Source: a phage. Taken from it: a DNA stretch of 56,260 bases. A model generated the notes under the pieces. The model did no database searches. It was given only the letters and a program-made list of their open reading frames with translations, and was not told the origin of the DNA. Where the stretch lies: sequence record PX583170.1; one strand, given 5' to 3'. Position numbers and translations under genes: made by a program. Every line of letters starts with the position of its first letter. The first letter of the stretch is position 1. Below are positions 1 to 55,939 of the stretch, in pieces.

Positions 1-135
1 CGGACTTAAAATACGGTCCCTACCCCAACTTTTTCCTACAGCCTATCGGCTTAATGATAACACCAAGTTAGGCGCTTCGCTTATGAGTCAAGGTCAAAGG
101 CAATCAGAGCACGCTGTTGTAACGAGCTAGTCTTA

Positions 136-157
136 CCATTAGTTGGTTGTGATTATG
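136..157 (+). promoter_or_regulatory. Promoter-motif copy P1 (candidate phage-RNAP promoter) upstream of the RNAP gene
   Basis: ccATTAGTTGGttgtgattatg; shares the CATTAGTTG core with 13 other sites. Confidence 0.4.
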
Positions 158-214
158 AATAGGCTACGCAAGTCTAATCCGTTTCAGTTAAATCATAATC
201 AATTGGAGACTATC

Positions 215-2329
215 ATGACTAATGAAGAATATCGTGCACTGGCTGCTGATGGCGCTCGCTTAAAAGAAGAAGGCCACGGTTGGAAAGACGTGCTTGATAC
301 GATGGACCGTTGCAACCAAATGGTTGATGAAATCACTACTGCTACACAATCCGAAACTAAAACCGAAACTAACTTGGAGACTCGCAAAATGACAACTATC
401 TCAACTCAAACTATCAAATCCGTTGTCCCTGCTATCACGGCTCTGGTATACCGTGCTAAAGAGAAACAGAACTACATGCAGCCTCAGACCTGTGCTATTG
501 CTGCTCTTGCAATCTTCAAGATGATGACCTCATTCACTCGTGATGATGTTGTCCCAGCCATTGCAATGGTTGAGCTGGCTTCTGCTTCTATTGCTGATGC
601 CAACCGTTATAACAACGATTTGAAAGCAATGCACTATGTTGACCCAGCTATCAACCTCATTGGTTTGGCTAAGCACTTTGGCTTCATTACCATGAACGAA
701 GACAAGTCATTCCAACAAACTGATACATGGGTTGAACTGGTTACAACCAAAGACACAGCAGTGCCATTCACTGAGCGTGTTACATCTGAATCTCGTCGCA
801 AGCCTTTCGTTAAAGGTGGCAAAGTTAAGCCATCCAAAACTTTGAAAGCTGCAATCGAATTCCTGCAAGATACTGAGTACCATGTGGAGACTGAGATGGT
901 TCGCATCATCCAGTCCATGCTTGAGCAACGTACCTACGGTGGTTTGCAGATGCCAGAAGCAATCCAGACTGAACTTCATGTTTGGAACAATGCTGTAGCA
1001 ATGATGAATCAGGATAAGCTGTATTCTGACTACTTTGCTGATAACCGTGGTCGCCTGTATCATGTAGCATGTGCTGGCCCTAACCCACAATCCTCTGACT
1101 TTGCTCGTTGCTTGTATTCTCACAATGTTGAGAACATCGTTAAGAAGTTTAACGAAGATGGTTCTACTACCATCGCATACAACATGTTCATGGCAGAGCT
1201 GGAAGATATTTCTGGTGGTGAATGGTGCAGTGCTAAGCGTTTAACTTATGTTGCTCAGAATCCAGCTGGTTCACTTGCTCGCATGATGAACATGCCTAAA
1301 GCTGAACGTCCTTCCAAGCCATTCACTTATGTTCGTCTGGCTCTGGATTGGTTCAAGTTTGAGACTACAGGTGAGTGCGATTCTCGTGTAGGCTTTGGCT
1401 TAGATGCTAAATGTTCTGGTACTCAATATCTGGCATTCATTGCTGGTAACATGGAAATGGCTCGTGCAACAGGTCTGGTTGATTCTGAGACTAAAGCATC
1501 TGACCCATACCAGTTATCTCTTCGTGAACTGTTGAAGTTACTCGACCGTTCTTCAATGAAGCCATCTCCTGAAATCATGGATGAGTTCTTGAATCCGAAA
1601 GCTGGTCGTAAGTTTATCAAAACTCCATACATGGCTATCCAATATGGTGGTGGTAAAGCAGCATTGACTGGTTCTTCTGACTTCATTAGCTACATGACAG
1701 AAGCTCTCCAGATTCCTATGGAGAAAGCTGAGGCATTTGCTGAACTGTGTGTAGAAGCAATCCATAACGCATTGGGTGCTAAGATTAACATGTTCATCGA
1801 GAAAGCTGCTGATGCTGCATACAATCGTTGTGTTGAACTTGGCAAAGAGTACATCACATATCGCCACACTGATGGTCAGGTTGTAATGAAGCCTTGCTTC
1901 CCATCTCGTGAAATCTGTGAGGCATTCAGCATTCGTGTTGATAGTCAAACTCGTGTTATCTTTGGTCAGATTCAGGAGAACAAGCCTTGGACCATTCGTG
2001 AGTCCAATCCAACTAAAGAAGAGTTCAAGCGTACCTTCGTTGTTAACTACATCCAAGGTATTGACGCATTGGTTGCTCGTACTGTTGCAGTTAAAGCTAA
2101 AGAAGCTGGTCTTCGTGGCTTTACTTCAATTCACGATTGTTTCCGTTGCTGCTTAGCTGATGCTCCACGTATGATGGAAGTTATTCGTGCAGCATATGTT
2201 GAAATCTTCGTAACCAACAATCAATTCGAGAATCTGTCTAAGCAACTCGGTGGCATTCAGATGTATCATGAGAACATCGTAACCGAAGAGCTTCTGATGA
2301 GCGAACATGCTTACTACTTCTGTCAATGA
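215..2329 (+). CDS. T7-like single-subunit DNA-dependent RNA polymerase (ORF opens at 143; ATG at 215 has SD ggaga)
   Basis: Motif A-like FGLDAKCSGTQYLAF (T7 DGSCSGIQHF), motif B-like KFIKTPYMAIQYGGG, motif C-like TSIHDCF (T7 HDSF). Shorter than T7 RNAP. Confidence 0.85.
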   Translation: MTNEEYRALAADGARLKEEGHGWKDVLDTMDRCNQMVDEITTATQSETKTETNLETRKMTTISTQTIKSVVPAITALVYRAKEKQNYMQPQTCAIAALAIFKMMTSFTRDDVVPAIAMVELASASIADANRYNNDLKAMHYVDPAINLIGLAKHFGFITMNEDKSFQQTDTWVELVTTKDTAVPFTERVTSESRRKPFVKGGKVKPSKTLKAAIEFLQDTEYHVETEMVRIIQSMLEQRTYGGLQMPEAIQTELHVWNNAVAMMNQDKLYSDYFADNRGRLYHVACAGPNPQSSDFARCLYSHNVENIVKKFNEDGSTTIAYNMFMAELEDISGGEWCSAKRLTYVAQNPAGSLARMMNMPKAERPSKPFTYVRLALDWFKFETTGECDSRVGFGLDAKCSGTQYLAFIAGNMEMARATGLVDSETKASDPYQLSLRELLKLLDRSSMKPSPEIMDEFLNPKAGRKFIKTPYMAIQYGGGKAALTGSSDFISYMTEALQIPMEKAEAFAELCVEAIHNALGAKINMFIEKAADAAYNRCVELGKEYITYRHTDGQVVMKPCFPSREICEAFSIRVDSQTRVIFGQIQENKPWTIRESNPTKEEFKRTFVVNYIQGIDALVARTVAVKAKEAGLRGFTSIHDCFRCCLADAPRMMEVIRAAYVEIFVTNNQFENLSKQLGGIQMYHENIVTEELLMSEHAYYFCQ

Positions 2330-2370
2330 TATTAATTGGTCAAGGATGACCACAAACTTGGAGACTTATA

Positions 2371-2571
2371 ATGAACATTCAACAAATCAATCAAATCGAA
2401 AACTGTTTCAATCCTCATCATACCTGTGACATGAGCAACTTATCTCGTCCTACAGTGGAGGAGACTAAAGACTTCTTAGAATTGTTAGCAGAATATAAAC
2501 AAGAATCGCATGTACTATTGCATGCATATTTGCACAATTCTGGATACTTTGATACAGAAATACCGTTCTGA
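2371..2571 (+). CDS. Hypothetical small protein (66 aa)
   Basis: ATG with SD ggaga 8 nt upstream; followed by a terminator. Confidence 0.5.
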   Translation: MNIQQINQIENCFNPHHTCDMSNLSRPTVEETKDFLELLAEYKQESHVLLHAYLHNSGYFDTEIPF

Positions 2572-2576
2572 TATTT

Positions 2577-2603
2577 GGGAGCTTCGGCTCCCTTTTCTTG
2601 TTT
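2577..2603 (+). terminator. Rho-independent terminator
   Basis: GGGAGC-ttcg-GCTCCC perfect 6-bp stem with UUCG loop, then ttttcttgttt. Confidence 0.75.
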
Positions 2604-2623
2604 CAACTAAGTCGCATAACTCA

Positions 2624-2645
2624 GCATTAGTTGTATGTGAATCTA
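2624..2645 (+). promoter_or_regulatory. Promoter-motif copy P2
   Basis: gCATTAGTTGtATGTGAATcta, directly after the terminator and 22 nt before the next gene. Confidence 0.5.
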
Positions 2646-2666
2646 ATAAACCATTTGGAGCATATC

Positions 2667-2834
2667 ATGTTTACAGTGACCTTAGTAACCTATTATGGCA
2701 AGCAAGTTTGTGAGAAGTTTGAGACTTTGAAAGAAGCCCGTGAGTTTGCAGCTCGTGAAGAGAATATTTATGTAGACTGTGAAATCACAGATGGTGATAA
2801 GCAGTATGAAGTTGTAGCTCCTACACTCAACTGA
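2667..2834 (+). CDS. Hypothetical small protein (55 aa; ORF opens at 2631)
   Basis: ATG at 2667 preceded by tttggag SD; the earlier TTG start lies inside the promoter motif. Confidence 0.45.
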   Translation: MFTVTLVTYYGKQVCEKFETLKEAREFAAREENIYVDCEITDGDKQYEVVAPTLN

Positions 2835-2848
2835 TTCCCAATATTCGG

Positions 2849-2858
2849 ACAATATTGT
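2849..2858. promoter_or_regulatory. Perfect 10-bp palindrome ACAATATTGT (operator-like)
   Basis: Self-complementary; flanked by aatattcgg and gcatgtaatattgt. Confidence 0.35.
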
Positions 2859-2884
2859 TGCATGTAATATTGTCCCGATATTCG

Positions 2885-2906
2885 ACATTAGTTGGATATG
2901 AAGTAA
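2885..2906 (+). promoter_or_regulatory. Promoter-motif copy P3
   Basis: aCATTAGTTGGATATGAAgtaa; followed by hairpin CGGAG-aaata-CTCCG at 2913..2927; no gene for ~1 kb downstream. Confidence 0.45.
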
Positions 2907-3277
2907 AGAATACGGAGAAATACTCCGCATGACATATTGAATCATTCTAGAAACATTCAGCATGTCAGCTTTGAGTTACAGTGTTGTAATGATGTGGCAA
3001 TCATTGAACTCCCTGGGTAGGCCACCTACAGTTCCAGCAACCATGACACAGAGTAGGAATATCTATCCGAAACTTGTACTTCACCTATAGCATGTCTATT
3101 AGCTACAGTATTGTTCCTTCTCCTATTATCAAGGCCCACCCACAAGCCGGGAGATAACTTTGACAAGACTGGAACTTTTGGACATGCTTCTTTCTTTCTA
3201 CAAGAATTTGAAAGAAGAGAAGAAGTCGGACTAAGCCTCTCGTTTTCACGCAGAAGCCGCCCCGATTTTGAGCAACA

Positions 3278-13613: not shown

Positions 13614-13635
13614 ACATTAGTTGGATGTGGAAAGA
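13614..13635 (+). promoter_or_regulatory. Promoter-motif copy P12
   Basis: aCATTAGTTGGATGTGgAAaga. Confidence 0.5.
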
Positions 13636-13707: not shown

Positions 13708-14046
13708 ATGGCTAAGATTGTAACCGTAACTCAGTACGAAGCTAACGATGGTTCCCTGTTCCTGACCGAAGCAGAGTGTAATGCACATGACTTCAAACTG
13801 GAAAACGGTGCTAAAATTGAGAAAGCTGCCGAAGCGTACCTGAATACCGTTGGTGCTATCGACCGTTCTCGCTCCATGCAGAAGAACACCATCGAGCAGT
13901 TCCTGGCATTCTACCTGCCGTGGGTTGAAGCTGGCGAGCCAGAAGTTGAGCGTACTAAGTTCGATACTCCGAAAGAAGCTAAAGTTGCTGACGCAAGTGT
14001 TGCCGAAGCTGCCGAAGCTGCTGTTGAAGAAGCTCCGGTATTCTAA
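13708..14046 (+). CDS. Hypothetical acidic protein with host-like codon usage (112 aa)
   Basis: SD aaggta; CTG/CGT/GAA/CCG-rich; acidic C-terminus ending EEAPVF. Confidence 0.55.
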   Translation: MAKIVTVTQYEANDGSLFLTEAECNAHDFKLENGAKIEKAAEAYLNTVGAIDRSRSMQKNTIEQFLAFYLPWVEAGEPEVERTKFDTPKEAKVADASVAEAAEAAVEEAPVF

Positions 14047-14413
14047 GTTGCCGATGGCAAACTTGAGAGACTAAGCTAAATCGATCTGGCATGCACTGGA
14101 AGATCGTCCGGTGCTGCCTTGAACCCGCTCTGAAAGGAAGAGTGGGCTTCAATGAGCATTCTTGTGATTAGAGTTGGGAGGAAGGCCGATGCCCAAGCTC
14201 ATGGCCCAGACGAGAGTGTTCATTGAAGTTATTTCAATTTGTGCATAATTCAAACACCAGTGCATGAGCCTTCGACGGAAGGCAATGTTGGGAAATTTGT
14301 TGTGTACAAATTGAAGTAGTTTTCTGAGTCTTACGACGGGCCTAAACTGCCTGGAGTTATTGCGACTGTTTTATTCATTTAAAATAAATGCAAATGATTC
14401 TGAAATGCGAGTT

Positions 14414-14711
14414 GCGGCTTAATTAAATTTAAGTCCTCTCCGTGGTCTTCCAATCCCACGTAACCAAATTTGGCGCATTGTGGCTTCGAGATGTGATTAA
14501 TAAATCGGAGCAATAATTAATTTGTATTCTGCGATGCAATGCAGGCTTAAGTCCTCCAGTGCGCGTGGGGATGTGACAGAGTACAAACTTAATTATTAAT
14601 TTGTATTCTGGTGTTGTTCGCCAAGATTGGTGCACTCATGATTGGTAGTGTTGGGGAGCGCGGAGCCTAAAATATTATGTGGCATCTCCTACCAGAGTAC
14701 AAACTTAATTA
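14414..14711. repeat. Degenerate tandem copies of a ~70-120 bp non-coding element
   Basis: Exact repeats: ttaagtcctc (14429, 14547), attaatttgtattctg (14516, 14595), cagagtacaaacttaatta (14577, 14693). Confidence 0.6.
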
Positions 14712-15147
14712 TGCAGTTGGATATTTCTAGAGGACGGACGAGCACACTGGAATGTCTTCAATTGGTTTAGTGTGAGAAGCTATGCCAATTTGAAACGTAA
14801 CTCCTTGAGGAAGTGCTCCTCTGGATTTCCCTCCACACAGGAATCTCAAGCCTGTGGCAGTGACTTCGAAGCTGCACTGCGTAACCTAATTCACCCTAAA
14901 GTGAGTTGCCCTGAGCATGGAAATAAACTGCTCAAACCAATGATGCCCACAAAGGTGGGATAAGTTAGGTTGCCTGTTGGTACTTGGGTTCAACACCTGC
15001 TTGCACTCGCAAAGTAGTGCCTCGTACCTGAGATGAAGTGAGTCGGGACCATCAATCCCACGTTATGTCAAAACACAGTAGGCGGCTCACAGATTCTACA
15101 AGCCTCGCAGTTCGGGAAAACCTGCGTTATCAAAACCCACCCAATTT

Positions 15148-15240
15148 GGACGAGTAGCTCAGAAGGTCTGCTCCAGAGCTTAGTCAGGTAGAGCAATCTG
15201 TTCGACAGATGTGTCGTTGGTTCGAATCCAACCTCGTCCA
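15148..15240 (+). tRNA. tRNA-like gene, unusually long (93 nt); anticodon tentatively CAG (Leu)
   Basis: Perfect 7-bp acceptor stem GGACGAG/CTCGTCC, canonical T-arm GTTGG-TTCGAAT-CCAAC, discriminator A; loop GTCAGGT at 15183..15189; the D-arm could not be folded by eye. Confidence 0.5.
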
Positions 15241-15269
15241 CCCACTTTCAACAATAACATGGAGTCCTC

Positions 15270-15410
15270 ATGGACATTGATGCACTAGACAATTTGGACT
15301 TCGGTGCTGCCGAAGAAGCCATTGAAGAACTAAAGAAAAAGCAGGACGAAGAAGCAATCGTTCCTGGTGCTGGCGATAATGACTGCTCAAGCGGTGCGTG
15401 TGCCATCTAA
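15270..15410 (+). CDS. Hypothetical small acidic peptide (46 aa)
   Basis: ATG with SD ggag; ends GAGDNDCSSGACAI; below the ORF-track cutoff. Confidence 0.3.
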   Translation: MDIDALDNLDFGAAEEAIEELKKKQDEEAIVPGAGDNDCSSGACAI

Positions 15411-15418
15411 GGTGATTT

Positions 15419-15655
15419 ATGCAACAGCTTAAATCAGTAATTCTTGGCGTCCTGACTGCATTTGGCATTCTTATTGCAGTGTTCCTCAAAGGCAAAAGCT
15501 CAGGCAAAGCCGAGGAGCGTCAGGAAGCCACAGAGAAGCAACTAGATTCATTAAAAGAATCTATCGAGATTAAATCGCATGTTCAGAAAGAAGTGTCTAG
15601 CAGTTCTGATAGCAATGTCGATAGTGAGTTGCTCTCAAAGTGGGTTCGTAAGTGA
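15419..15655 (+). CDS. Hypothetical small membrane protein (78 aa)
   Basis: N-terminal hydrophobic segment VILGVLTAFGILIAVFL. Confidence 0.4.
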   Translation: MQQLKSVILGVLTAFGILIAVFLKGKSSGKAEERQEATEKQLDSLKESIEIKSHVQKEVSSSSDSNVDSELLSKWVRK

Positions 15656-16625
15656 TTACTGCTTGATTGCACAACCAATTTATTTGGATGTTGCAGAAGT
15701 AAAAATCTTATCACGCGAAACCAAAACACAGATTTTAGTCCACAATGAAACGTGGGCACAAAAGTGTTCGAAACTTACCCGACAGTGAGTTGAACAAAAT
15801 GCTCGCCATCGCATGAACAACATTTGGCAGTCCGGTACGGGACTTTAAACACACGTATATCATAGTCGAGGGAGTGCGCGACTTTAAATAACGAGACTCT
15901 AGCCACTTGTGGTATGGCAGGTGTAACTCCTGCAATTGCTCTGGGCATAACAATTAAAATTGCTGCCTCGTATTGAACGCGAGAAAGTTCAGGTAGTCAC
16001 TTCCTAGAACAGTGGCCGGGAACATACCTAGACAAAAGTGCTTGAGAACGTTAGCTCTGTCTTGCCAGCATTAATGGCACGTTGGCCGCGTAAAGGCCAC
16101 AGCGTCTGGCCAACGTATCGGCCACCAAATTCAATGGGCTAGTGCAAATGTCAGTCACTAGAAGATGTGTTGCAAAACGTCTTCCACGATGTGCAAAGTG
16201 TCAGTCACGTGCCCGCCAATTTCCTCCAACAGTTATGCCTCTGTTCAAAAGGCTCAAGAGAGCGTCTGGCATACCGTAGCGATACGGCTTAGTTGCGCTG
16301 ATTGTGTTGTGCAGAAAGAAAGTTCAGGCTTTCGTTTGGGTTACTCCTCATCCCGAAGTTAGCTGGATTCAAAATCCAGACTATGTTCCTATACACATGA
16401 AATATGCAAGTCGAGGGTTCTTAATGTTCAAACATGATGCGAGCATTAAGCGGGTTTATACTTTTCCCCGATGGTCCCCATAAACAAGGCTGATTCACTT
16501 GGGCGGTTCGAATCAAATTTAATAAGTGTCTTGGCCGCAGTGGAAACATCATTTAAGCCAATGTATTGTAATGTTCGTAATAGTCCACGTCAGGACACTT
16601 ACTTAAATTTTAACTGGAGAGAAAC

Positions 16626-16856
16626 ATGAAAACTGCTGAAATTGCCGAAGAGATTTATAAGGCCGTAATAGCCAGCCAAATCACAAGTGAAGTCCTGCAC
16701 ATGGATATTGAAGAAGTTCGCAATGCCTTTGGTGGTTTTGCAATCTTGTCAATAGAAGCTGCGGAAGCACTGACAAACACGTACAATCAACGCGAATATG
16801 AAAAGCGTTCTGTACTAAATGCGTCGATGAAAGAAATTCAGGCGTCATTAAAATAA
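16626..16856 (+). CDS. Hypothetical protein (76 aa)
   Basis: ATG with SD ctggagag. Confidence 0.45.
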   Translation: MKTAEIAEEIYKAVIASQITSEVLHMDIEEVRNAFGGFAILSIEAAEALTNTYNQREYEKRSVLNASMKEIQASLK

Positions 16857-16912
16857 TACCATTATCATGGTGCGGAGCTAATTAATCTCCCACCATATGA
16901 ACCGGAGAGCAA

Positions 16913-17563
16913 ATGATTACTGCAACACTCGTTGACCACATGGGCAGCGACCTCACAACTGTTAATGCTGCACGAGTTTCTTATGGTGCAGAGTCGCATG
17001 AAATATCTTTACGTGACGAGAAGCTGATTGAGTTTCTTGCAAAGCATAAGCACATTACGCCGTTTCGCCACGCTCAGGTAACATTGCGCTGCAAAGCCCC
17101 AATCTTCATTGCACGTCAGCTTGGCAAACATCAAACGGGCTTTAGTTGGAATGAAGTTAGCCGTCGCTACAAAGATGGTGAAGCAATCTCGATTGAATGC
17201 TTTGTACCAGATGTTGTATTCGGTCGTCCTGAGAAGTTGATGACTCAGACTGCACAACCGTTGCCACAAGATTTTGCTGACGATATTCATTATCGCATGG
17301 AAAGCCATAACAAGGCTTGCATCGCAGAGTATGAAACGTTAATTGGTTTGGGGATTGCCCCAGAGCAAGCTCGCATGGTTCTTCCACAATCCATGATGAC
17401 TACATGGATTTGGACTGGCTCACTTTATGGCTGGGCATCTATGTATAATCAACGTTCCTCCGAACACGCGCAATATGAAGTTCGCTTGTTTGCGGAAGAA
17501 GTGAATAAAATCATGTCAGAACTGTTCCCAATTTGTTGGAAGGCTCTGACCAACCAGGAATAA
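16913..17563 (+). CDS. thyX: ThyX-like flavin-dependent thymidylate synthase with a variant signature motif
   Basis: ARQLGKHQTGFSWNEVSRRY matches the ThyX pattern (RHR-x7-S ... S-x-RY) except that RHR is KHQ; SD ggaga; 10-bp hairpin at 16867..16896 upstream. Confidence 0.65.
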   Translation: MITATLVDHMGSDLTTVNAARVSYGAESHEISLRDEKLIEFLAKHKHITPFRHAQVTLRCKAPIFIARQLGKHQTGFSWNEVSRRYKDGEAISIECFVPDVVFGRPEKLMTQTAQPLPQDFADDIHYRMESHNKACIAEYETLIGLGIAPEQARMVLPQSMMTTWIWTGSLYGWASMYNQRSSEHAQYEVRLFAEEVNKIMSELFPICWKALTNQE

Positions 17564-17567
17564 ATAA

Positions 17568-19331
17568 ATGAACGTCAAGCAATGTGTGGCTAAGATTAAG
17601 CACGATGTACCAGACTGTAAATCCACATCTGGCAAGTCCTTACAGGTTTGGTTGAATGTCGATGAAGCTGGTAATAAGAACTTCTCTGGTTACTGCTTTG
17701 CGTGTGGCGTTCTAGTACCAAATCCTTATGGCAATAATCCGGAGAACATTCCAGAGATTAAAGTCAAGACTCCAGAAGAAATTCAGGAAGAAGTTGATGA
17801 AATCACTGCTTGTCCTCCGTTTGATTTAACCCATCGCAGTATTGAGCCAGAATTCTGGAAAGCTGCTGGTGTTCGACTTCTGTATTCAGAGTATGATGGA
17901 AAGACTCCAAATGCTTTGGCACATGGCTATACCAAAAATGGTAAACTTGTTCGTTGGAAGATTAAACTTCTGAACAAGAAAGTTATGTGGTCGGTTGGCG
18001 ACACCCAGGGTAACGACCCTTACAACTGGATGGCTGCAAAAGCAATTGGCGGTAAGACACTGTTCATCACAGAAGGTGAAGAAGACTGCATCGCATTGCG
18101 TCAAATCCTCAAAACTATGAACCGTGGTGGTGCATATGAAGATTTGGATTTTGCTGTAATTAGTTTGAGTGATGGAAGTGATTCCGTACACAAATGTTTG
18201 TCACCAGTTGCAGAAGAAATTAAGCAACGTTGGGAGCAGGTTGTTATCGTATTTGATGATGATGAACCTGGACGTAAAGCTGCAAAAGAAGCGTGCCGAT
18301 TGTTGCCTGGTGCAATGATTGCAACACTTCCAGCTAACGATGCCAACGATTGTTTGAAGCGTGGCTTGCTAAAAGCTACTCAGTCTGCTGTTGTATTTCG
18401 TGCTGCTCGTCCTCTTCCTACAGCACTTGTCAACAAAGAACTTCTTATGGAGGAACTTGATGACGAGGTTGAACAAGGCGTGGACTATCCTTGGCCCAAG
18501 TTAACCGACTTAATGTTTGGTCAGCGTCGAGCCGAAGTTATTACAATCGGTGGTGCAGAAGGTGGTGGTAAAACTACGCTGTCCCGTCAGATTGTGCATC
18601 ACAACATTACCAAGCATGATTGGGGAGTGTTTACTGCATACATGGAGGAAACTCCTATAGAGACATTGCGCCGAATGGCTGGCCTCAATGACAACTTGCC
18701 ATATTGGGAACCTGCGTTTACTCGTGAAGACCCTCGATATGATGAAGCTAAGTTCCGTCAAACTGCTGCGAAGATGCTTCGTAACATGGAGATTTGGGAC
18801 CGCAAGCAAGCTGGAGAAGACCCTTATGAAACCTGGGATGGGTTAAAGACGATTCTTCGTCAGATTGGACCAGACATTGATATGTTTGTCCTTGATAACT
18901 TAACCTACTTATCGGAAGGGATTTCTGCCTCAGAGAAGAACGACTTCTTAGGTAAGCTGTATGCAGATATTACTAAGCTGGCAGACCAATACCAGTTCCA
19001 TGTGAATATCTTGTCGCACCTTAACCCTGTGGCAAAAGGTCAACGACCTCATGAGGATGGTGGCCGTATTAAGAAGTCAGACTTTACTGGCTCCCGTGCT
19101 GCTGCTAAATATTCTCATGGTATGTTCGGCTTTGAGCGTAATAGCCAGGCAGTTGACCCAAACTGCTCTATTATTCGTTCCATTAAGGCTCGTAAGAGTG
19201 GTAAAACAGAAGGCTTCAAGACGTATTATGACACCGAATCTGGTCGAATTATTCAACGTTCTTGGGACGACTCGCTGTTCGAAACTAAAGAGATTGTTCA
19301 GCTTACTAAGAAGAACGGTCCACATCAATAA
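17568..19331 (+). CDS. Bifunctional primase-helicase (T7 gp4-like)
   Basis: Cys pair CFACG, TOPRIM-like FITEGEEDC and VFDDDEPGRKAA, Walker A GGAEGGGKTT, Walker B MFVLDN. Confidence 0.85.
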   Translation: MNVKQCVAKIKHDVPDCKSTSGKSLQVWLNVDEAGNKNFSGYCFACGVLVPNPYGNNPENIPEIKVKTPEEIQEEVDEITACPPFDLTHRSIEPEFWKAAGVRLLYSEYDGKTPNALAHGYTKNGKLVRWKIKLLNKKVMWSVGDTQGNDPYNWMAAKAIGGKTLFITEGEEDCIALRQILKTMNRGGAYEDLDFAVISLSDGSDSVHKCLSPVAEEIKQRWEQVVIVFDDDEPGRKAAKEACRLLPGAMIATLPANDANDCLKRGLLKATQSAVVFRAARPLPTALVNKELLMEELDDEVEQGVDYPWPKLTDLMFGQRRAEVITIGGAEGGGKTTLSRQIVHHNITKHDWGVFTAYMEETPIETLRRMAGLNDNLPYWEPAFTREDPRYDEAKFRQTAAKMLRNMEIWDRKQAGEDPYETWDGLKTILRQIGPDIDMFVLDNLTYLSEGISASEKNDFLGKLYADITKLADQYQFHVNILSHLNPVAKGQRPHEDGGRIKKSDFTGSRAAAKYSHGMFGFERNSQAVDPNCSIIRSIKARKSGKTEGFKTYYDTESGRIIQRSWDDSLFETKEIVQLTKKNGPHQ

Positions 19332-28857: not shown

Positions 28858-30466
28858 ATGACTTCCAAGAAGAAAAACAATCTCTCTGTTAAAGTTGCAG
28901 ATGGGTTAGAAAACCTTGTAACGGGGTTGGGCGGTCAGGCAGATAAGTCCACTTTTAACCAGTGGACTTTCTCAAACAAGAACGCGAACTATCGCGAACT
29001 TATGAACCGCTTCCGTGAGGACTGGGTTGCACAGAAAGTGTGTACCGTCATTCCTCAAGATATGACGCGTAAGTGGCGGCATATTGATACCGAAGAAGGA
29101 CGCAAAGCGGATAAGAAACTTCGTATTCGTAAGCTGTTCCGTGAGGCGTATCAATGGGCCAGGTTGTATGGTACTTCGTTTGTTCTGCTCGACCGCGAAC
29201 TTATGAACCGCTTCCGTGAGGACTGGGTTGCACAGAAAGTGTGTACCGTCATTCCTCAAGATATGACGCGTAAGTGGCGGCATATTGATACCGAAGAAGG
29301 ACGCAAAGCGGATAAGAAACTTCGTATTCGTAAGCTGTTCCGTGACTCAAGATATGACGCGTAAGTGGCGGCATATTGATACCGAAGAAGGACGCAAAGC
29401 GGATAAGAAACTTCGTATTCGTAAGCTGTTCCGTGAGGCGTATCAATGGGCCAGGTTGTATGGTACTTCGTTTGTTCTGCTCGACCTAAAAGGTACGGGC
29501 AAACTTGATACACCATTGCGACTGGATAACTTGAAGACTGGATGTATTAAATCCATGAGAGTTATTGACCGCTCACGCTTATTTGCCGCAGGGACTATGG
29601 TTCTGGACCCTTTGAGTCCTCACTATGGTTTGCCAGAGTATTACACTTTGGCTGGGTATCCCGGCTATATCCACTACACTCGTTTCCTTCGGTTCGAGGG
29701 TACTGAACTGCCGCTGTTCGAATTCCAACGCAACATGTGGTATTCTGATTCGGTACTTATTCCACTGCTGAAAACGATTGACCAATTCTACACAACTGCC
29801 GCTGCTGCTGCCAGCCTTGCCCAAGAAGCCACTATTGATGTGGTAACTGTTGAAGGCTTACAATCTCTGCTTACATCACCGGAAGGTGAAGCTGCTGTGA
29901 TGAAGCGCTTCAAACTCATGAAGCTGGCAAAGAGTATTTATAACGTCTTAATTCTCGACAATACGGAGAAGTATGACACCAAGTCAATTGCACTATCTGG
30001 TGTGAAAGATTTGATTTGGGAATACTTGAAGATAGTTGCTGCCGCAGTTGGTATTCCGGCTACACGTTTCCTTTCTGCATCTCCAGACGGTATGAATGCT
30101 ACGGGCGAATCTGACCTCGTAAACTATATCGACTTGTTGACTGGCTTGCAGACTTCTGTGTTCGACCCTCGTTTAGATGTGGTAGACAAGATTGTCCAGG
30201 CGCACTTTGGCATTGAAGAATATAACTACGAATGGTTAGATATCTTCCCTGAATCCAATGTTGAGAAAGCGAAGCGAGCTAAAGATTTGGCATTTGCTGT
30301 TGACCTGCTGGTTAACAACGGTACTATTACTACCGAAGTTGCAAACGAAGTCATGTTCCATTCGGGCGTGTTCGGAACTTGTGACCTTGGCAAACCAAAT
30401 CCTAATCCTCCTAACATCCAAAAGGGTAACGCAAGTGAAGCAAAACCAAAACCTGGTTCAGCTTAA
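28858..30466 (+). pseudogene. Putative portal gene split into two ORFs (28858..29364 and 29285..30466) by a scrambled tandem duplication
   Basis: Removing 29194..29485 (292 bp) gives one continuous 438-codon ORF; portal call is by position after TerL only. Confidence 0.5.
28993..29485. repeat. Scrambled tandem duplication: full 201-bp unit, then two partial copies
   Basis: Unit 28993..29193; copy 29194..29345 matches unit bases 1-152; copy 29346..29485 matches unit bases 62-201. Confidence 0.9.
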
Positions 30467-31982: not shown

Positions 31983-32557
31983 CGCCACCTCCAGCTCCTA
32001 CAGTATCTGCTGTTGCAGGGGCTGTAACTGCGGACGCATCTGCCTCTGATGCAACTGTAACTGTAGACAAACTGTTTAAGTTTGAGAACTCTGCGGCAAC
32101 AGATTATAACTTCGCTGTTACACCTCCCGTGACTGGTGTTTCTGTGGCGGCAAACGGCACTGTGACTGTACTCAGTGCAACGACTACAGCCACTTCTGCG
32201 ACAATCAAGGCAACAAATAAAACAGAGTCTGGCGTAACTGCATCCAAACAGATTACGATTAAGCCTAAGCCTCCTGCACCTACGGTGTCTGCTGTAGATG
32301 GAGTTGTAACGGCTGATGCGTCTTCTACTGATGCCACTGTAACTGTGGACAAACTGTTTAAGTTTGGTAACTCTACAGCAACAGACTACACCTACGCTAT
32401 TACGCCTCCTGTGACTGGCGTTTCTGTGGCTGCAAATGGTACTGTAACCGTCTTAAATGAGACAACTACCGATACCTCTGCCACGGCTAAGGCAACAAAC
32501 AAAACAACCTCCAGCGTGACTGCAACTAAAGAGATTGCTATTACGCCGAAGTCTTAA
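31976..32557 (+). CDS. Two tandem Ig-like (Big_2-like) domains in the -1 frame, reachable only by frameshifting
   Basis: No ATG/GTG/TTG between 31964 and 32128 in this frame; repeat unit PPAPTVSAV...VTGVSVAANGTVTVL...KATNKT occurs twice. Confidence 0.5.
   Translation, partial: AVTPPPAPTVSAVAGAVTADASASDATVTVDKLFKFENSAATDYNFAVTPPVTGVSVAANGTVTVLSATTTATSATIKATNKTESGVTASKQITIKPKPPAPTVSAVDGVVTADASSTDATVTVDKLFKFGNSTATDYTYAITPPVTGVSVAANGTVTVLNETTTDTSATAKATNKTTSSVTATKEIAITPKS
31988..32554. repeat. Diverged tandem duplication, 2 x 282 bp, encoding the two Ig-like domains
   Basis: Protein repeats start at 31988 and 32270; ~80% nt identity by eye. Confidence 0.7.
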
Positions 32558-52595: not shown

Positions 52596-52617
52596 CGATT
52601 ATATGTGAGAAGAGATT

Positions 52618-52642
52618 CGATGCGTTAGCGTCGTTTCTCTTT
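52618..52642 (+). terminator. Rho-independent terminator after nrdB
   Basis: CGATGCG-ttag-CGTCG stem (6 bp, one G-U) then tttctcttt. Confidence 0.55.
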
Positions 52643-52683
52643 GAACTAGAATAAAACAAGTAAATTAAATATTTATTTATTCC

Positions 52684-52701
52684 CAATATTGCTACAATAT
52701 T
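52684..52701. promoter_or_regulatory. Near-palindromic CAATATTG-ct-ACAATATT element related to the leader palindromes
   Basis: Lies in an AT-rich tract with poly-T runs and three ACGAGACT(C)-like repeats at 52907..52970. Confidence 0.35.
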
Positions 52702-53168
52702 AAGAGTAATATTAGGAATGCGTAAAGTTCAAAACCAAATGGTACATGGTCGGTCAACTGTACCTCCTTCGGAGAAGGTACCTGGATAGAAATTCGTTCA
52801 TGGTCGGTCAGCTGTATCTAGCCGAAATTTGTTCGAACAGTTGTCTGACTATGAAATAAATTTTTTTTTATAATTTTTTTTTTATTTTTAAATATTGCTA
52901 CAGAATTAATGAGACTAGAATTCGTAACAAAGCTACGAGACTCGAATTGTTTCAATATTAACGAGACTCAATCTGTGACAATATTATAATTTTTATTTTT
53001 GGGCCAGCGGGGAGGGGAAGCCCAACGTCCTATCGGACTTAAAATACGGTCCCTACCCCAACTTTTTCCTACAGCCTATCGGCTTAATGATAACACCAAG
53101 TTAGGCGCTTCGCTTATGAGTCAAGGTCAAAGGCAATCAGAGCACGCTGTTGTAACGAGCTAGTCTTA

Positions 53169-53190
53169 CCATTAGTTGGTTGTGATTATG
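53169..53190 (+). promoter_or_regulatory. Promoter-motif copy P1 (right repeat copy)
   Basis: Identical to 136..157. Confidence 0.4.
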
Positions 53191-53247
53191 AATAGGCTAC
53201 GCAAGTCTAATCCGTTTCAGTTAAATCATAATCAATTGGAGACTATC

Positions 53248-55362: not shown

Positions 55363-55403
55363 TATTAATTGGTCAAGGATGACCACAAACTTGGAGACTT
55401 ATA

Positions 55404-55604
55404 ATGAACATTCAACAAATCAATCAAATCGAAAACTGTTTCAATCCTCATCATACCTGTGACATGAGCAACTTATCTCGTCCTACAGTGGAGGAGACTA
55501 AAGACTTCTTAGAATTGTTAGCAGAATATAAACAAGAATCGCATGTACTATTGCATGCATATTTGCACAATTCTGGATACTTTGATACAGAAATACCGTT
55601 CTGA
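55404..55604 (+). CDS. Hypothetical small protein, second copy
   Basis: Identical to 2371..2571. Confidence 0.5.
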   Translation: MNIQQINQIENCFNPHHTCDMSNLSRPTVEETKDFLELLAEYKQESHVLLHAYLHNSGYFDTEIPF

Positions 55605-55609
55605 TATTT

Positions 55610-55636
55610 GGGAGCTTCGGCTCCCTTTTCTTGTTT
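55610..55636 (+). terminator. Rho-independent terminator, second copy
   Basis: Identical to 2577..2603. Confidence 0.75.
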
Positions 55637-55656
55637 CAACTAAGTCGCATAACTCA

Positions 55657-55678
55657 GCATTAGTTGTATGTGAATCTA
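55657..55678 (+). promoter_or_regulatory. Promoter-motif copy P2 (right repeat copy)
   Basis: Identical to 2624..2645. Confidence 0.5.
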
Positions 55679-55699
55679 ATAAACCATTTGGAGCATATC

Positions 55700-55867
55700 A
55701 TGTTTACAGTGACCTTAGTAACCTATTATGGCAAGCAAGTTTGTGAGAAGTTTGAGACTTTGAAAGAAGCCCGTGAGTTTGCAGCTCGTGAAGAGAATAT
55801 TTATGTAGACTGTGAAATCACAGATGGTGATAAGCAGTATGAAGTTGTAGCTCCTACACTCAACTGA
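55700..55867 (+). CDS. Hypothetical small protein, second copy
   Basis: Identical to 2667..2834. Confidence 0.45.
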   Translation: MFTVTLVTYYGKQVCEKFETLKEAREFAAREENIYVDCEITDGDKQYEVVAPTLN

Positions 55868-55917
55868 TTCCCAATATTCGGACAATATTGTTGCATGTAA
55901 TATTGTCCCGATATTCG

Positions 55918-55939
55918 ACATTAGTTGGATATGAAGTAA
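55918..55939 (+). promoter_or_regulatory. Promoter-motif copy P3 (right repeat copy)
   Basis: Identical to 2885..2906. Confidence 0.45.

Follow-up and report, generated by a model that had tools for sequence, protein, structure and literature searches.

Sequence comparison indicates that a gap of ~0.8 kb in a coliphage genome, with the spanin (lysis) genes on one side and the replication module on the other, encodes a large folded RNA with tRNA-like inserts, which is conserved across several phage genera. The window, by which we mean the whole stretch of 56,260 nucleotides analysed here, is a complete phiEcoM-GJ1-like genome (Chaseviridae) with a terminal repeat of 3.2 kb and with every gene on the + strand; the flopper record gives MG1655 (E. 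coli K-12) as the host. The structured multi-domain RNA locus spans ~15864-16609 of the + strand and has a three-part layout (Table 1). Its first 3′ neighbour is the gp32-like ORF 16626-16856, which has the Shine-Dalgarno (SD) sequence GGAG at 16616-16619. The evidence comprises conservation and covariation of the RNA, its strand, the absence of a coding signal and its absence from known families.

No mention of this RNA is found in the ST32, 4HA13 and Tiny papers or in the ICTV profile, which were searched for relevant terms. The equivalent stretch carries no feature in 26 of 60 GenBank records, a further 11 records are wholly unannotated, and hypothetical ORFs are given in others. An original prediction made from the DNA sequence had described the gap as non-coding and structured, and as possibly encoding a small RNA or being a protein-binding region. 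Compensatory changes across genera bear out the claim that it is structured and probably RNA-encoding; the selected element, rather than a small RNA, is a pseudoknotted domain of ~380 nt together with a 5′ domain of ~210 nt.

Table 1. Features of the RNA locus, in positions of the window
Feature	Positions	Strand	Description
5′ domain	~15864-16052 (~210 nt)	+	moderate conservation; opens with the invariant motif
Invariant 5′ motif	15864-15899	+	hairpin AGTCG-N10-CGACT, then TTTAAATAACGAGACTC
Two variable hairpins	15903-15912; 15916-15932	+	CCAC-TT-GTGG; GCAGG-TGTAACT-CCTGC
Conserved core of 5′ domain	15974-16052	+	hairpin TGAAC 15974-15978/GTTCA 15987-15991, then GGTAGTCACTTCCTAGAACAGTG...AAAGTGCTTGAGAACG
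Linker	16064-16218	+	hypervariable, lineage-specific; degenerate tRNA-like modules
Linker module 1	16064-16127	+	hairpin GCCA-GCATTAA-TGGC 16064-16078; 9-bp stem 16079-16116; ATCGGCCACCA 16117-16127
Linker module 2	16136-16218	+	closing stem GGGC 16136-16139/GCCC 16211-16214, then G-CCA
3′ domain	16229-16609 (~380 nt)	+	high conservation; pseudoknot, nested long-range helices, hairpins, closing helix
H-type pseudoknot	16229-16253	+	ACAG 16229-16232/CTGT 16241-16244 interlaced with GCCT 16237-16240/AGGC 16250-16253
Part A	16260-16414	+	three stacked long-range helices around a multi-hairpin junction
Long-range helices of part A	16269-16273/16403-16407; 16303-16307/16393-16397; 16314-16316/16386-16388		GCATA/TATGC; TGTGT/ACACA; GAA/TTC
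GNRA hairpin of part A	16274-16287	+	CCGTA-GCGA-TACGG
Further hairpins of part A	16318-16333; 16337-16355; 16363-16379	+	invariant loop YCUCCUY in 16337-16355
Part B	16403-16522	+	hairpins CTTAATG 16420-16426/CATTAAG 16444-16450 and CGGG 16451-16454/CCCG 16467-16470; conserved CCCATA
Last hairpin of part B	16492-16496/16510-16514	+	GATTC/GAATC; conserved 13-nt loop ACUUGGGCGGUUC
Closing helix	16515-16533/16591-16609	+	AAATTTAATAAGTGTCTTG/CAGGACACTTACTTAAATT; ~19 bp; inverted repeat and MFE fold
Inner helix of closing element	16540-16544/16584-16588	+	GTGGA/TCCAC; interior variable

Coding potential and transcription signals

The gap is non-coding, as had been predicted. Its + strand has no ORF of more than 65 aa, and the variable sites of 16229-16625 show no codon periodicity (5/6/5 and 8/7/4 over the codon positions; 7/3/24 in the flanking ORF 16626 and 43/31/137 in thyX). 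Single-nucleotide indels among close relatives fall inside the gap ORFs (GTCGAGGG versus GTCAGGG, TTTTCCCC versus TTTTCCC), and no SD-like sequence lies upstream of the inspected + strand ORFs (ATG 16165 and 16471).

Neither a sigma-70 promoter nor an intrinsic terminator was found on the + strand of the region, overall counts of such sites being equal to those in shuffled sequence, and no + strand terminator-like site lies within 15000-17200. GC content is 44-45%, as in the remaining genome, with no AT-rich stretch and no turn in the cumulative GC skew. The genome contains 12 distinct + strand sites of the ACATTAGTTGGATRTG family, none of them between 13614 and 21556, and as judged from sequence this family is a better promoter candidate than ACGAGACTC. 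Three exact copies of ACGAGACTC occur in the unique genome, at 15891, 52935 and 52961; the match between a copy at ~15891 and repeats near the right genome end had been noticed before, with the copy counted as a fourth rather than a third. Allowing one mismatch, there are 16 matches versus 8.4 expected, a number reached in 2 of 100 shuffles, and the 11-mer TAACGAGACTC has exact copies at both 15889 and 52959. A T7-like promoter at ACGAGACTC was rejected on the grounds that there are only three copies and that the sequence 3′ of the motif is not conserved.

The invariant motif AACGAGACTC has its second site at 52959, upstream of the RNA polymerase gene and before the terminal repeat, and in Erwinia phage Faunus a copy likewise precedes the RNA polymerase gene. 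The motif matches neither the sigma-70 nor a phage-promoter consensus. This motif could be protein-binding DNA, and a protein-binding region as originally suggested is conceivable to that extent, but such a reading cannot account for the covariation described below.

Conserved domains and compensatory base changes

The 3′ domain is conserved far better than the 5′ domain and linker. Within the genus, 16229-16625 has 0.088 variable sites per nt, compared with 0.147 in ORF 16626 and 0.324 in thyX. Outside it, blastn searches with the gap matched phages of Erwinia, Pectobacterium, Aeromonas, Yersinia and Dickeya at 73-97% identity in discrete blocks; the adjacent ThyX protein of these phages is only 65-70% identical. 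A global MAFFT alignment of the whole gap was unusable, and block-wise and model-based alignments were therefore used. From its 5′ end, the 3′ domain consists of the pseudoknot, nested long-range helices closing a junction, three hairpins and a long closing helix, amounting to ~11 helices and a pseudoknot over ~380 nt.

The pseudoknot was tested in a structure-blind MAFFT alignment (A9) of 14 sequences, in which 98.1% of cells are paired and changes on both sides are seen in 6 of 8 pairs. On four measures out of five, none of 500 shuffles equalled the alignment; on the fifth, the count of further pair types, 261 of 500 did so. Slid partners were 17-54% paired. Parts A and B, for which the covariance models R1 and R2 were built, were tested in alignments (A6 and A8) fitted to the model structure, so that pairing is inflated there and the pseudoknot test is the only structure-blind one. 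In these, 96.4% of cells are paired in part A, with both-side changes in 23 of 33 pairs (slid partners: 26-53% paired), and 97.1% in part B, with both-side changes in 12 of 16 pairs; no shuffle among 500 was as good in either case. Taken together, the three tested parts show compensatory double changes in 41 of 57 base pairs and 96-98% of cells paired, in a sample of ~8 lineages that holds fewer independent events than the cell counts suggest. In all three tests, the shuffles never match the observed pairing, double changes or covariation score. The check by compensatory base changes proposed with the original prediction is therefore strongly positive.

Because G.U cells outnumber A.C cells in the tested helices (30 versus 5) and all genes lie on the + strand, the RNA is assigned to that strand. 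Single-sequence folding energy is no better than that of shuffles (z = -0.75 on the + strand, -0.58 on the - strand), and significance therefore comes from the comparison with relatives and not from the window alone.

Part A contains the GNRA hairpin that had been predicted one position upstream (16273-16286), and its outer helix carries a double change in phiA050 (GTATA/TATAC). This hairpin and the second copy of AGCGTCTGGC were the only parts of the selected element to be noticed originally. The loop YCUCCUY is anti-SD-like, being complementary to SD sequences. The arms of the closing helix, each of 19 nt, are 79% Watson-Crick complementary and are fully paired in the MFE fold when G.U is allowed; the helix ends 6 nt before the SD sequence of ORF 16626-16856. 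Helices of different sequence with ~13-29 pairs occupy the same place in Faunus, phiA050, L094, PM1 and Aioli, and only a 7-bp hairpin is present there in 4HA13 and L012. As modelled, the closing helix has the form of an RNase III site, namely an irregular double-stranded helix of ~20 bp between cistrons, and it may serve as such a site or as a 5′ stabiliser.

The invariant 5′ motif was found in every genus examined (Carltongylesvirus, Faunus, phiA050, L012, PM1 in diverged form, Loessnervirus and L094) and is 97% identical over 38 nt to that of Erwinia phage Aioli (blastn). Pairing of its stem is kept, with GTTG/CGAC and a G.U pair in Y2. The first variable hairpin, as read by eye, covaries to GCAAC/GTTGC in ST32 and GCTAC/GTAGC in TH23, and further to CCAGTG/CACTGG in Faunus and phiA050 and GCAATG/CATTGC in L012. 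The conserved core is 86% identical to Aioli over 63 nt; its hairpin at 15974-15991 also covaries (TGAAT/ATTCA in TH23; TGAAG/CTTCA in Faunus, phiA050 and Aioli; TCAAG/CTTGA in L012) around a loop, CTTCCTA(A/G)AACAG, that is invariant in 12 sequences. The small hairpin that comes next is CGAG/CTCG in ST32 and other genera and AGAG/CTCT in phiA050, and is rearranged in the window.

Several further candidates in the locus were rejected. A kissing interaction between the loop at 15869-15878 (GAGGGAG) and the CUCCUC loop is not conserved, the former being AGUGAAUGUG in Faunus. An 8-bp complementarity between 15944-15951 and 16232-16239 is one of ~5 such matches expected by chance in 840 nt and is broken without compensation in L012. 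Internal duplication of a unit of ~160 nt was suggested by TCTGG..CATA at 15940, 16104 and 16265 and by AGAAAGTTCAGG at 15982 and 16317, but the two folds use the shared strings differently.

Searches with R1 matched 22 of 100 sources, all of them phiEcoM-GJ1-like phages or related contigs, and none of 74 unrelated thyX loci (L014-L087). R2 gave 25 matches, Loessnervirus, L013 and L094 among them, and none in the same 74 loci or in the Spirochaete MAG contig L112, a DNA-pattern match. R1 misses domain A of Loessnervirus even with filters off; the domain is visible by eye, and R2 detects the adjacent part. A pattern scan of metagenomes found four new contigs with the element (L100, L101, L103 and L102, of which L102 has the same sequence as L094 from IMG/VR) and two chance matches. 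In the genome collection, the same approach gave one chance match. A looser pattern gave 72 unrelated IMG/VR loci; covariance-model matches are absent from these and from two Nefertitivirinae loci.

tRNA-like modules of the linker

Most of what the original prediction emphasised, namely the stem at 16079, the direct repeats and the first copy of AGCGTCTGGC, lies in the linker, the least conserved part of the locus. The stem does exist with its 20-nt loop, and is one pair longer than the 8 bp described, ending at 16116 instead of 16114 (ACGTTGGCC 16079-16087/GGCCAACGT 16108-16116). Perfect 9-bp stems with loops of up to 30 nt are expected ~0.09 times per 840 nt. As a conserved element, however, it fails, with no compensatory change even within the genus: its 3′ arm is GACCAACGT in GJ1, ST32 and TH23, giving an uncompensated C.A mismatch. 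The hairpin preceding it (16064-16078) covaries, reading GCCC-ACGTTAC-GGGC in phiA050 and L012. The direct repeats, placed 1-2 nt away from 16141 and 16190 where they had been reported, are GTGCAAATGTCAGTCAC at 16143-16159 and GTGCAAAGTGTCAGTCAC at 16191-16208, and differ by a 1-nt indel and not by the substitution described; in register, AAATGTCAGTCAC at 16146 and AAGTGTCAGTCAC at 16196 are identical at 12 of 13 positions. Two exact copies of AGCGTCTGGC are likewise present, at 16101 and 16261 rather than 16099 and 16260, and are unremarkable on their own, since ~0.3 recurring 10-mers are expected in 840 nt.

The end of module 1, ATCGGCCACCA, resembles a tRNA 3′ end. Where this module has its 9-bp stem, a real tRNA-Cys is found in PM1 and L012 (ARAGORN; Rfam 47 bits), and phiA050 has an element of T-arm, acceptor and CCA with the same end, ...GCCACCAAAT. 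Many such fragments occur in Y2, Aioli, phiA050 and GJ1. The linker modules of the window retain only the closing stem followed by N-CCA, and were recognised as tRNA neither by ARAGORN (whole window) nor by the Rfam tRNA model at E ≤ 10, whose sole match (15177-15232) lies outside the locus. A stem with NCCA stands a few nt 5′ of the pseudoknot in most genera, PM1 and L094 being the exceptions.

Module 2 holds two copies of GTGCAAA(G)TGTCAGTCAC on either side of a central hairpin, GAAGAUGU...ACGUCUUC; this hairpin and the closing stem are present in the MFE fold (z = -1.5). ST32 and TH23 lack this module, and within the genus no other stretch of the gap varies as much (0.735 variable sites per nt in the module). 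Pectobacterium phage PM1 has a copy elsewhere (L006:668-768), in which both 17-mers are identical, the frame GGGC...GCCC-A-CCA is kept and the central hairpin differs (GGTCG/CGACT). T-box-like sensing of the NCCA end by the loop at 16497-16509 was considered and rejected: complementarity is imperfect, there is no covariation, and in GJ1 the CCA-side sequence is altered with the loop unchanged.

Known RNAs, rival explanations and a proposed mode of action

The Rfam covariance-model check suggested with the original prediction yielded no family. GOLLD and ROOL have no match in the whole window at the gathering threshold, in 14000-17000 and 15850-16625 at E ≤ 10 with relaxed filters, or in seven relatives at E ≤ 0.1, all these searches giving only noise and tRNAs; nor do riboswitch, leader and other cis-regulatory families match at E ≤ 10. 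Two other candidates were dismissed. A group I intron was suggested by a P7-like 'CAGACTA...AAGTCG' and is ruled out by the nested helices and by the absence of an Rfam match, flanking exons or a split gene. A tmRNA-like RNA, considered for its tRNA-like end and pseudoknot, would lack a tag-like frame, and weak Rfam tmRNA matches lie elsewhere (14228-14477).

In GOLLD, the 3′ region is universally conserved and the 5′ region less so, and tRNAs are sometimes found in the linker; in phages it is located near tRNA islands (PMC12286853). ROOL, likewise large and with a pseudoknot, is an RNA of phages and prophages that often lies close to tRNA islands and has no known protein partner or function, and the function of both RNAs is still unknown (PMC12286853). 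The RNA of the window resembles GOLLD in being phage-encoded and several hundred nt long, in adjoining or containing tRNAs and in its covarying helices and pseudoknots, as well as in its succession of variable 5′ part, tRNA-bearing linker and conserved 3′ part, a likeness of layout only and not evidence of homology. It differs from GOLLD in having no match to the GOLLD model in sequence or structure, in its source (Chaseviridae infecting Gammaproteobacteria, as opposed to Lactobacillales, Mycobacterium and marine sources) and in abutting replication genes, apparently without a promoter or terminator of its own. With ROOL it has in common a large size, a pseudoknot and a link with tRNAs, but there is no Rfam ROOL match and its helix order cannot be derived from that of ROOL. 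The tRNA region of phage T4 includes the species 1 and 2 RNAs, of ~120-140 nt, inside a cluster of functional tRNAs, and these stable non-tRNA RNAs and the tRNAs form one transcription unit from which they are released by tRNA-processing enzymes. The processing logic that we propose would be the same by analogy, except that the tRNAs of the window are mostly degenerate and that the partner RNA is at least ~390 nt long with a complex fold.

With a probability of about one half, we explain the gap as a gene, or a cluster of genes, whose product is a large, structured + strand RNA excised at its tRNA-like modules; our best reading, by analogy, is that this would be a new GOLLD/ROOL-like 'ornate' phage RNA. 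Since no promoter-like site lies inside or next to the locus, transcription would most likely start at the phage promoter-like site at 13614 and read through the lysis genes, the RNA and the replication genes alike. The tRNA-like modules would act as punctuation at which RNase P and 3′-end tRNA processing cut, which would free the 3′ domain and define its 5′ end. Recognition of the window's own modules by RNase P is a guess, because ARAGORN and the Rfam tRNA model miss them. The terminal helix of ~19 bp could be an RNase III site, or a protective 5′ stem retained on the replication mRNA. The released RNA of ~390 nt would fold stably, exposing conserved loops that include YCUCCUY, and bind a partner conserved across hosts or phages. 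It may act in trans, as a functional analogue of GOLLD and ROOL with no sequence relation to them. The partner might be the translation apparatus, as hinted by the anti-SD-like loop, or T7-like replication or transcription proteins. We propose, tentatively, that it represents an undescribed ornate-RNA class restricted to the Cleopatravirinae (Chaseviridae) and a few metagenomic relatives, excised from a polycistronic transcript by tRNA punctuation and working in trans as a machine or scaffold.

The main rival, which we regard as unlikely though worth serious attention, is a cis-acting leader: the RNA would remain a long 5′ untranslated region controlling translation or stability of the replication mRNA, with a metabolite (riboswitch-like), a phage protein (operator) or the ribosome as ligand and the anti-SD-like loop or terminal helix as expression platform. 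Phage-protein operators are exemplified by the autoregulation of T4 genes 32 and 43. A leader would fit the position of the RNA, always directly 5′ of whichever ORF opens the replication cluster: gp32-like in the window, thyX in L013, and in L094 a 156-aa ORF (893-1363) that by reading, without a domain search, is homing-endonuclease-like. It would also fit the terminal helix, 6 nt before the SD in the window and directly beside it in L094, the want of a terminator or promoter between RNA and ORF, and the complementarity of YCUCCUY to SD sequences. Against it, ~11 helices and a pseudoknot in ~380 nt exceed known leaders and single riboswitch aptamers, the riboswitch and leader families of Rfam give no match at E ≤ 10, and tRNA genes embedded in a leader are unusual. 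Moreover, SD and start codon are unpaired in the predicted folds of the window and 5 of 7 other genera (the SD of phiA050 and L012 lies in a small local hairpin), and the anti-SD loop could pair with only 4 nt of the window SD in a manner that is not gene-specific.

It is improbable that the locus is a decaying tRNA island with ordinary mRNA-processing hairpins (RNase III/RNase E) and no further function, on the model of the T7 early region, where stem-loops for these enzymes separate and stabilise flanking mRNAs. The tRNA-Cys genes of PM1 and L012, the CCA fragments of Y2, Aioli, phiA050 and GJ1 and a hypervariable linker that gains and loses modules all agree with it. So does the long terminal helix, which recalls T7 RNase III sites as an irregular inter-cistron helix of ~20 bp ending just before a ribosome-binding site, in a likewise single-strand-coded phage of T7-RNA-polymerase type. 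However, only 16515-16609 resembles such sites, and the conserved, pseudoknotted 290 nt that precede this stretch are unexplained by them, as are the invariant single-stranded AGCGTCTGGCATAC and CACATGAAATATGCAAG, the CUCCUC loop, the compensatory change of pseudoknot and nested long-range helices across genera, and a variability below that of neighbouring protein genes. More doubtful again is an origin, as a primer or R-loop transcript (of which the T7 primary origin, T4 oriF/oriG and ColE1 RNA II are examples) or as hairpins in single-stranded DNA. The gap adjoins replication genes just upstream of those for primase-helicase and polymerase, shares the AACGAGACTC motif with the region before the terminal repeat, and has hairpins with G.T pairs that could also form in + strand DNA. 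Yet neither the phage promoter nor the AT-rich stretch of a T7-type primary origin was found in or near it, GC content stays at 44-45% with no skew turn, and the pseudoknot and the conserved loops suit a folded RNA better than hairpins in DNA; origins of T7-like replication systems are not known to require any RNA whose tertiary fold is conserved. Small protein genes (16165-16362, 65 aa; 16304-16483, 59 aa; minus-strand 15735-15953, 72 aa) are barely credible. Hypothetical proteins are annotated in the equivalent stretch of some GenBank records, among them Mangalitsa (Mangalitsa_039, minus strand), DE15, PYps3T and 2KOFFS, but the variable sites show no third-position excess, the indels fall within these frames, the inspected ATGs lack an SD, all other genes are on the + strand, and the ORFs are not conserved between genera whereas the base pairs are.

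If the reading as an excised ornate RNA is true, this would be a third unrelated RNA with the GOLLD/ROOL layout, suggesting a recurring phage solution and not a one-off; few known natural RNAs are as elaborate as GOLLD and ROOL, which form multimers. The phages, with their 53-kb genomes, grow easily on E. coli K-12 and, in contrast to the sources of GOLLD and ROOL, would provide a genetically tractable system in which the function of an ornate RNA is directly testable. Were it a cis-acting leader instead, its complexity would be unusual for a regulator of a phage replication operon. Annotations of Chaseviridae should carry an ncRNA feature at the gap.

As regards its position, the RNA invariably adjoins the gene that opens the replication cluster, the last helix ending 6-45 nt before the start region. 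This is a point against a stand-alone RNA, and the position suits a cis-acting leader equally well.

Genomic setting and conservation of the gap

Blastn assigns the phage to the phiEcoM-GJ1 group (Chaseviridae, Cleopatravirinae, Carltongylesvirus); identity to Escherichia phage flopper reaches 98.7% over 15300-17300. The first 300 nt recur 53,033 nt further on (100% identity reported over 300 nt), and the ORFs of 143-2963 are duplicated at the same offset. The window thus consists of a 53-kb genome and a ~3.2-kb direct terminal repeat (1-3227 = 53034-56260), which includes a single-subunit RNA polymerase gene (143-2329); a terminal repeat of this sort is given for the family in the ICTV profile (PMC12842549). 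All long ORFs lie on the + strand. Internal tandem duplications also occur on this strand within structural-region ORFs: one, at 31988-32551, repeats a 282-nt unit at 77% identity (31988/32270), and the other, at 28993-29436, has two copies of a 152-nt unit that are 100% identical (28993/29194), plus a third that is 69% identical.

The 0.8-kb gap between the spanin and replication genes is non-coding. Its + strand ORFs do not exceed 65 aa, in agreement with the original prediction of no credible ORF, and are interrupted by single-nucleotide indels among close relatives. Variable sites were counted between the window and seven close relatives (Table); their rates and codon-position splits indicate that constraint is stronger in the 3′ part of the gap than in the adjacent genes, and does not act on a reading frame.

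With the gap alone as query, 73 phage records were matched by blastn. Within the genus these are phages of E. coli, Yersinia and Shigella; other genera match only in discrete blocks, namely ~83-91% over 15861-16050 in Erwinia phages Aioli, Ep031 and EaPF7/9 (97% to Aioli in sub-block 15862-15899), 75% over 16232-16541 in Erwinia phage Faunus, and 73-74% over 16229-16420 in Aeromonas phage phiA050 and Pectobacterium phages PM1 and PP101. ThyX of the same other-genus phages is just 65-70% identical to that of the window. A 36-nt block (15934-15969) is 100% identical in Faunus, though located elsewhere there. The equivalent ~1 kb in those genomes is unannotated or carries only short hypothetical ORFs, and is unmentioned in the ST32, 4HA13 and Tiny papers and the ICTV profile (PMC12842549). 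The whole region is also matched, at 84.6% identity, by GenBank record PP952070.1, named Staphylococcus phage Pel53 with Staphylococcus hyicus as host; as all other members have enterobacterial hosts, this may reflect a mislabelled host or a contaminated sample.

HNH homing-endonuclease genes are annotated at varying sites near the RNA locus and thyX in relatives (Table). Two ORFs at comparable positions in metagenomic contig L094 (893-1363 and 3795-4298) appear homing-endonuclease-like from a reading of their translations alone. The window has no such HNH gene between 15788 and 17563.

Features of the RNA locus and its surroundings (window coordinates, except for HNH genes, which are numbered in the relatives' loci named)
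Feature	Coordinates	Strand	Variable sites per nt	Codon positions 1/2/3	Remarks
Spanin-like ORFs	15419-15655; 15579-15788	+	0.11-0.12	third-position excess	overlapping; 5′ neighbours of RNA locus
(a) Invariant 5′ motif	15864-15899	+			short hairpin, then TTTAAATAACGAGACTC
(b) 5′ domain	15903-16052	+			variable hairpins, then conserved core
(c) Linker	16064-16218	+			tRNA-like modules
Repeat module	16136-16218	+			GGGC/GCCC closing stem, then G-CCA; two direct repeats around central hairpin
(d) Pseudoknot	16229-32/16241-44 interlaced with 16237-40/16250-53	+			first element of 3′ domain
Stacked long-range helices	16269-73/16403-07; 16303-07/16393-97; 16314-16/16386-88	+			three, after pseudoknot
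Further hairpins	16420-50; 16451-70; 16492-514	+			last with conserved 13-nt loop
(e) Closing helix	16515-33/16591-609	+			19-nt arms
3′ part of gap, first segment	16229-16410		0.088	5/6/5
3′ part of gap, second segment	16411-16625		0.088	8/7/4
76-aa ORF	16626-16856	+	0.147	7/3/24	3′ neighbour of RNA locus
thyX	16913-17563	+	0.324	43/31/137	after 76-aa ORF
Primase-helicase	17568-19331	+			after thyX
ACATTAGTTGGATRTG sites	136, 2624, 2885, 3746, 6724, 7321, 11378, 11518, 11655, 13614, 21556, 41668	+
Annotated HNH genes	L003 3257-3709; L111 153-599; L007 477-944; L001 3881-4324

Covariation and architecture of the RNA

The original prediction listed a stem, direct repeats, a GNRA hairpin and motif copies, all of which were found, with coordinates 1-2 nt off. 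The perfect stem has 9 bp (16079-87/16108-16) rather than the 8 claimed, and the direct repeats GTGCAAATGTCAGTCAC and GTGCAAAGTGTCAGTCAC differ by an indel, not by a t/g substitution. AGCGTCTGGC does occur twice in the gap (16101 and 16261), the GNRA hairpin lies at 16274-87, and exact copies of ACGAGACTC at 15891, 52935 and 52961 confirm a link to the right genome end. By our own arithmetic, chance alone would yield ~0.09 such stems and ~0.3 such 10-mer repeats, and each feature, considered alone, is weak evidence. Folding of the whole stretch was no better than that of shuffled sequence on either strand. The proposed 'small RNA or protein-binding region' proved right in part; it was undersized and focused on the wrong part.

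Compensatory changes, which the original prediction had suggested seeking in a comparative alignment, were found across genera: hairpins follow one another with pairing preserved while their stem letters differ. Two covariance models of the 3′ domain were built. R1 (16260-16414; 33 pairs, 7 helices) matched 22 of the 100 sources searched, all phiEcoM-GJ1-like or related contigs and including Sabourvirus 4HA13 (129 bits) and metagenomic contigs L013 and L094, and none of 74 unrelated thyX-bearing viral loci. R2 (16403-16522; 16 pairs) also matched four Loessnervirus genomes; with filters off it had no match in two Nefertitivirinae loci, and its sole match among 73 loosely pattern-matched IMG/VR loci was L129, the L013 contig itself. 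In three alignments, two of them fitted to the model, and with ~8 lineages, so that independent events are fewer than the cell counts, pairing reached 96.4% of cells for R1 (changes on both sides in 23 of 33 pairs), 97.1% for R2 (double changes in 12 of 16) and 98.1% for the H-type pseudoknot at the 5′ end of the domain (6 of 8), the last aligned by plain, structure-blind MAFFT. None of 500 shuffles reached any measure observed for R1, and sliding its partners by 1-3 columns lowered pairing to 26-53%. The tested helices hold 30 G.U cells against 5 A.C cells, an excess that fits the + strand as the folded strand. Judged by this covariation, a structured RNA is encoded on the + strand in the 3′ part of the gap.

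The RNA opens with a motif present in every genus, contig L094 included. Hairpins of the 5′ domain covary (CCAC/GTGG vs GCAAC/GTTGC, GCTAC/GTAGC and CCAGTG/CACTGG), as does the core hairpin at 15974-91 (TGAAC/GTTCA, TGAAT/ATTCA, TGAAG/CTTCA, TCAAG/CTTGA); the core has an invariant loop, CTTCCTAxAACAG.

The linker is derived from tRNAs. A genuine tRNA-Cys occupies its position in PM1 and contig L012, and in phiA050, Y2, Aioli, GJ1 and Faunus it holds T-arm, acceptor and CCA fragments uncalled by tRNA finders. Its first part in the window comprises a covarying hairpin (16064-78), the 9-bp stem and a segment ending in GGCCACCA (16120-27); a ~90-nt tRNA-shaped element (GGATTCG...CGAATCC-G-CCA) of GJ1, Mangalitsa and SA91KD is missing between 16122 and 16137. 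ST32 and TH23 are without the repeat module. PM1 carries the module of window 16122-16221 at a different tRNA-like site, 668-768 of its locus, which precedes the spanin genes and overlaps PM1_020, an ORF annotated on the minus strand; the two 17-mers are identical there, and the central hairpin differs. The repeats are thus a conserved feature that belongs to a mobile module rather than to the core, and such modules seem to shift between these phages' two tRNA sites.

A tRNA-like match also lies at 15177-15232 (+; 27.9 bits vs an Rfam threshold of 29, model positions 9-63 only). The same site in GJ1, SA91KD and ST32 holds a 92-95-nt tRNA (41.8 bits in GJ1, 45.6 in SA91KD), called Leu (GJ1, ST32) or Ser (SA91KD) by ARAGORN and Arg by GenBank and the ST32 paper; the window and Mangalitsa have what looks like a truncated or degenerate copy. 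It falls within a second ORF-poor stretch, 14075-15270 (+), 5′ of the spanin genes, where relatives annotate small ORFs (e.g. an Imm-like protein in Mangalitsa) and where the Rfam models of permuted and alpha-proteobacterial tmRNA match 14228-14477 weakly, at 17.6-20.5 bits (E 0.015-0.2) and well short of the threshold.

In the 3′ domain, the GNRA hairpin and a three-hairpin junction lie inside the long-range helices, and one hairpin of the junction exposes the invariant loop YCUCCUY; the single-stranded connectors AGCGTCTGGCATAC, CACATGAAATATGCAAG and CCCATA are also invariant. The inner helix of the closing helix covaries (GTGGA/TCCAC in the window, GTCGG/CCGAC in Faunus and phiA050), and predicted folds have the closing helix formed anew from unrelated sequence in Faunus, phiA050, L094, PM1 and Aioli. 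It ends 6 nt upstream of GGAG (16616-19), with an ATG at 16626.

Distribution, probable transcription and possible function

The element was found in Carltongylesvirus, Faunusvirus, Loessnervirus, Suwonvirus, Sabourvirus and the unclassified phiA050, in metagenomic or IMG/VR contigs L012, L013 and L094, and in genus-level copies L097, L100, L101 and L103. Neither of the two Nefertitivirinae (Pahsextavirus-type) genomes examined has the element, and both lack a gap at that site; nor does the single bacterial MAG contig with a DNA-pattern match in a genome collection carry it. Its distribution is narrow. An Rfam search, likewise suggested originally, gave no family match in Rfam 15 at any threshold used, so the RNA is not GOLLD, ROOL, a group I intron, tmRNA, a T-box or a riboswitch class of that release. 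Sequence comparison gives good support for the locus as a new family of structured phage RNAs that are large and carry inserts derived from tRNAs.

Among repeated sequences of the genome, only the ACATTAGTTGGATRTG family is promoter-like. Its 12 distinct sites (Table) are confined to the + strand, and its 16-mers have 15 matches in the window vs 1.1 expected. The family is annotated as putative phage promoters in GJ1 (site 13614 is its 'putative phage promoter 7') and conserved in Faunus, where the core CATTAGTTGGAT is frequent, including upstream of the RNA polymerase gene. Chaseviridae promoters are not yet identified according to the ICTV profile (PMC12842549); because it is conserved across genera, this family is a strong candidate. 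The interval between 13614 and 21556 is free of further copies, as is the vicinity of the RNA in other genera, and no sigma-70-like or terminator-like site was found on the + strand of 15000-17200. The RNA would thus most simply be transcribed by read-through from 13614, in one transcript spanning lysis genes, RNA and replication genes.

Were the RNA to act independently, it must be excised from this transcript. Stem-plus-NCCA elements lie closely 5′ of the pseudoknot in most genera and, by analogy with known tRNA-linked transcripts, are candidate cut sites for RNase P and tRNA 3′ processing; the long terminal helix, which resembles T7 RNase III sites, is a candidate for RNase III cleavage, as in T7 mRNA processing.

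We put the probability of a stand-alone folded RNA at about 0.5, on account of its size and intricacy, conserved exposed loops, embedded tRNAs and GOLLD-like layout. GOLLD and ROOL are phage RNAs near tRNA islands, and a cryo-EM study (PMC12286853) describes GOLLD as variable in its 5′ half and conserved in its 3′ half, with a linker that bears tRNAs; the likeness is one of build at least, and any shared way of working would be analogy. A cis-acting leader of the replication operon is a tentative and rather unlikely alternative. The RNA always lies immediately 5′ of the first replication-cluster ORF, regardless of which ORF that is, no terminator separates it from the operon, and an anti-SD-like loop is present; however, most predicted folds leave the SD unpaired, and the RNA matches none of the known leader or riboswitch classes. 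Other readings fit less well than these two: that only tRNA relics and processing hairpins are present is improbable, a replication origin or primer RNA somewhat more so, and small ORFs in the gap most improbable.

The ACGAGACTC motif and the right genome end

TAACGAGACTC occurs at 15889 and 52959, with the extra ACGAGACTC at 52935. In Faunus, the corresponding site ahead of the RNA polymerase gene carries AACGAGACTC (plus AATGAGACTC), and the Faunus version of the 5′ motif contains AACGAGATTC. Sequence 3′ of the motif is not common to the copies. The motif fits neither promoter consensus and may be a protein-binding site on DNA or RNA. The stretch directly before the right terminal repeat, 52600-53033 (+), is AT-rich and non-coding, contains repeat families (AATATTGCTACAATATTAA-like, TGGTACATGGTCGGTCAACTGTACCT twice, ACGAGACTC twice) and has AACGAGACTCGAATTGCTACAATATTAATGAGACTC in common with the equivalent Faunus region; early promoters could lie here, or signals involved in concatemer processing or regulation.
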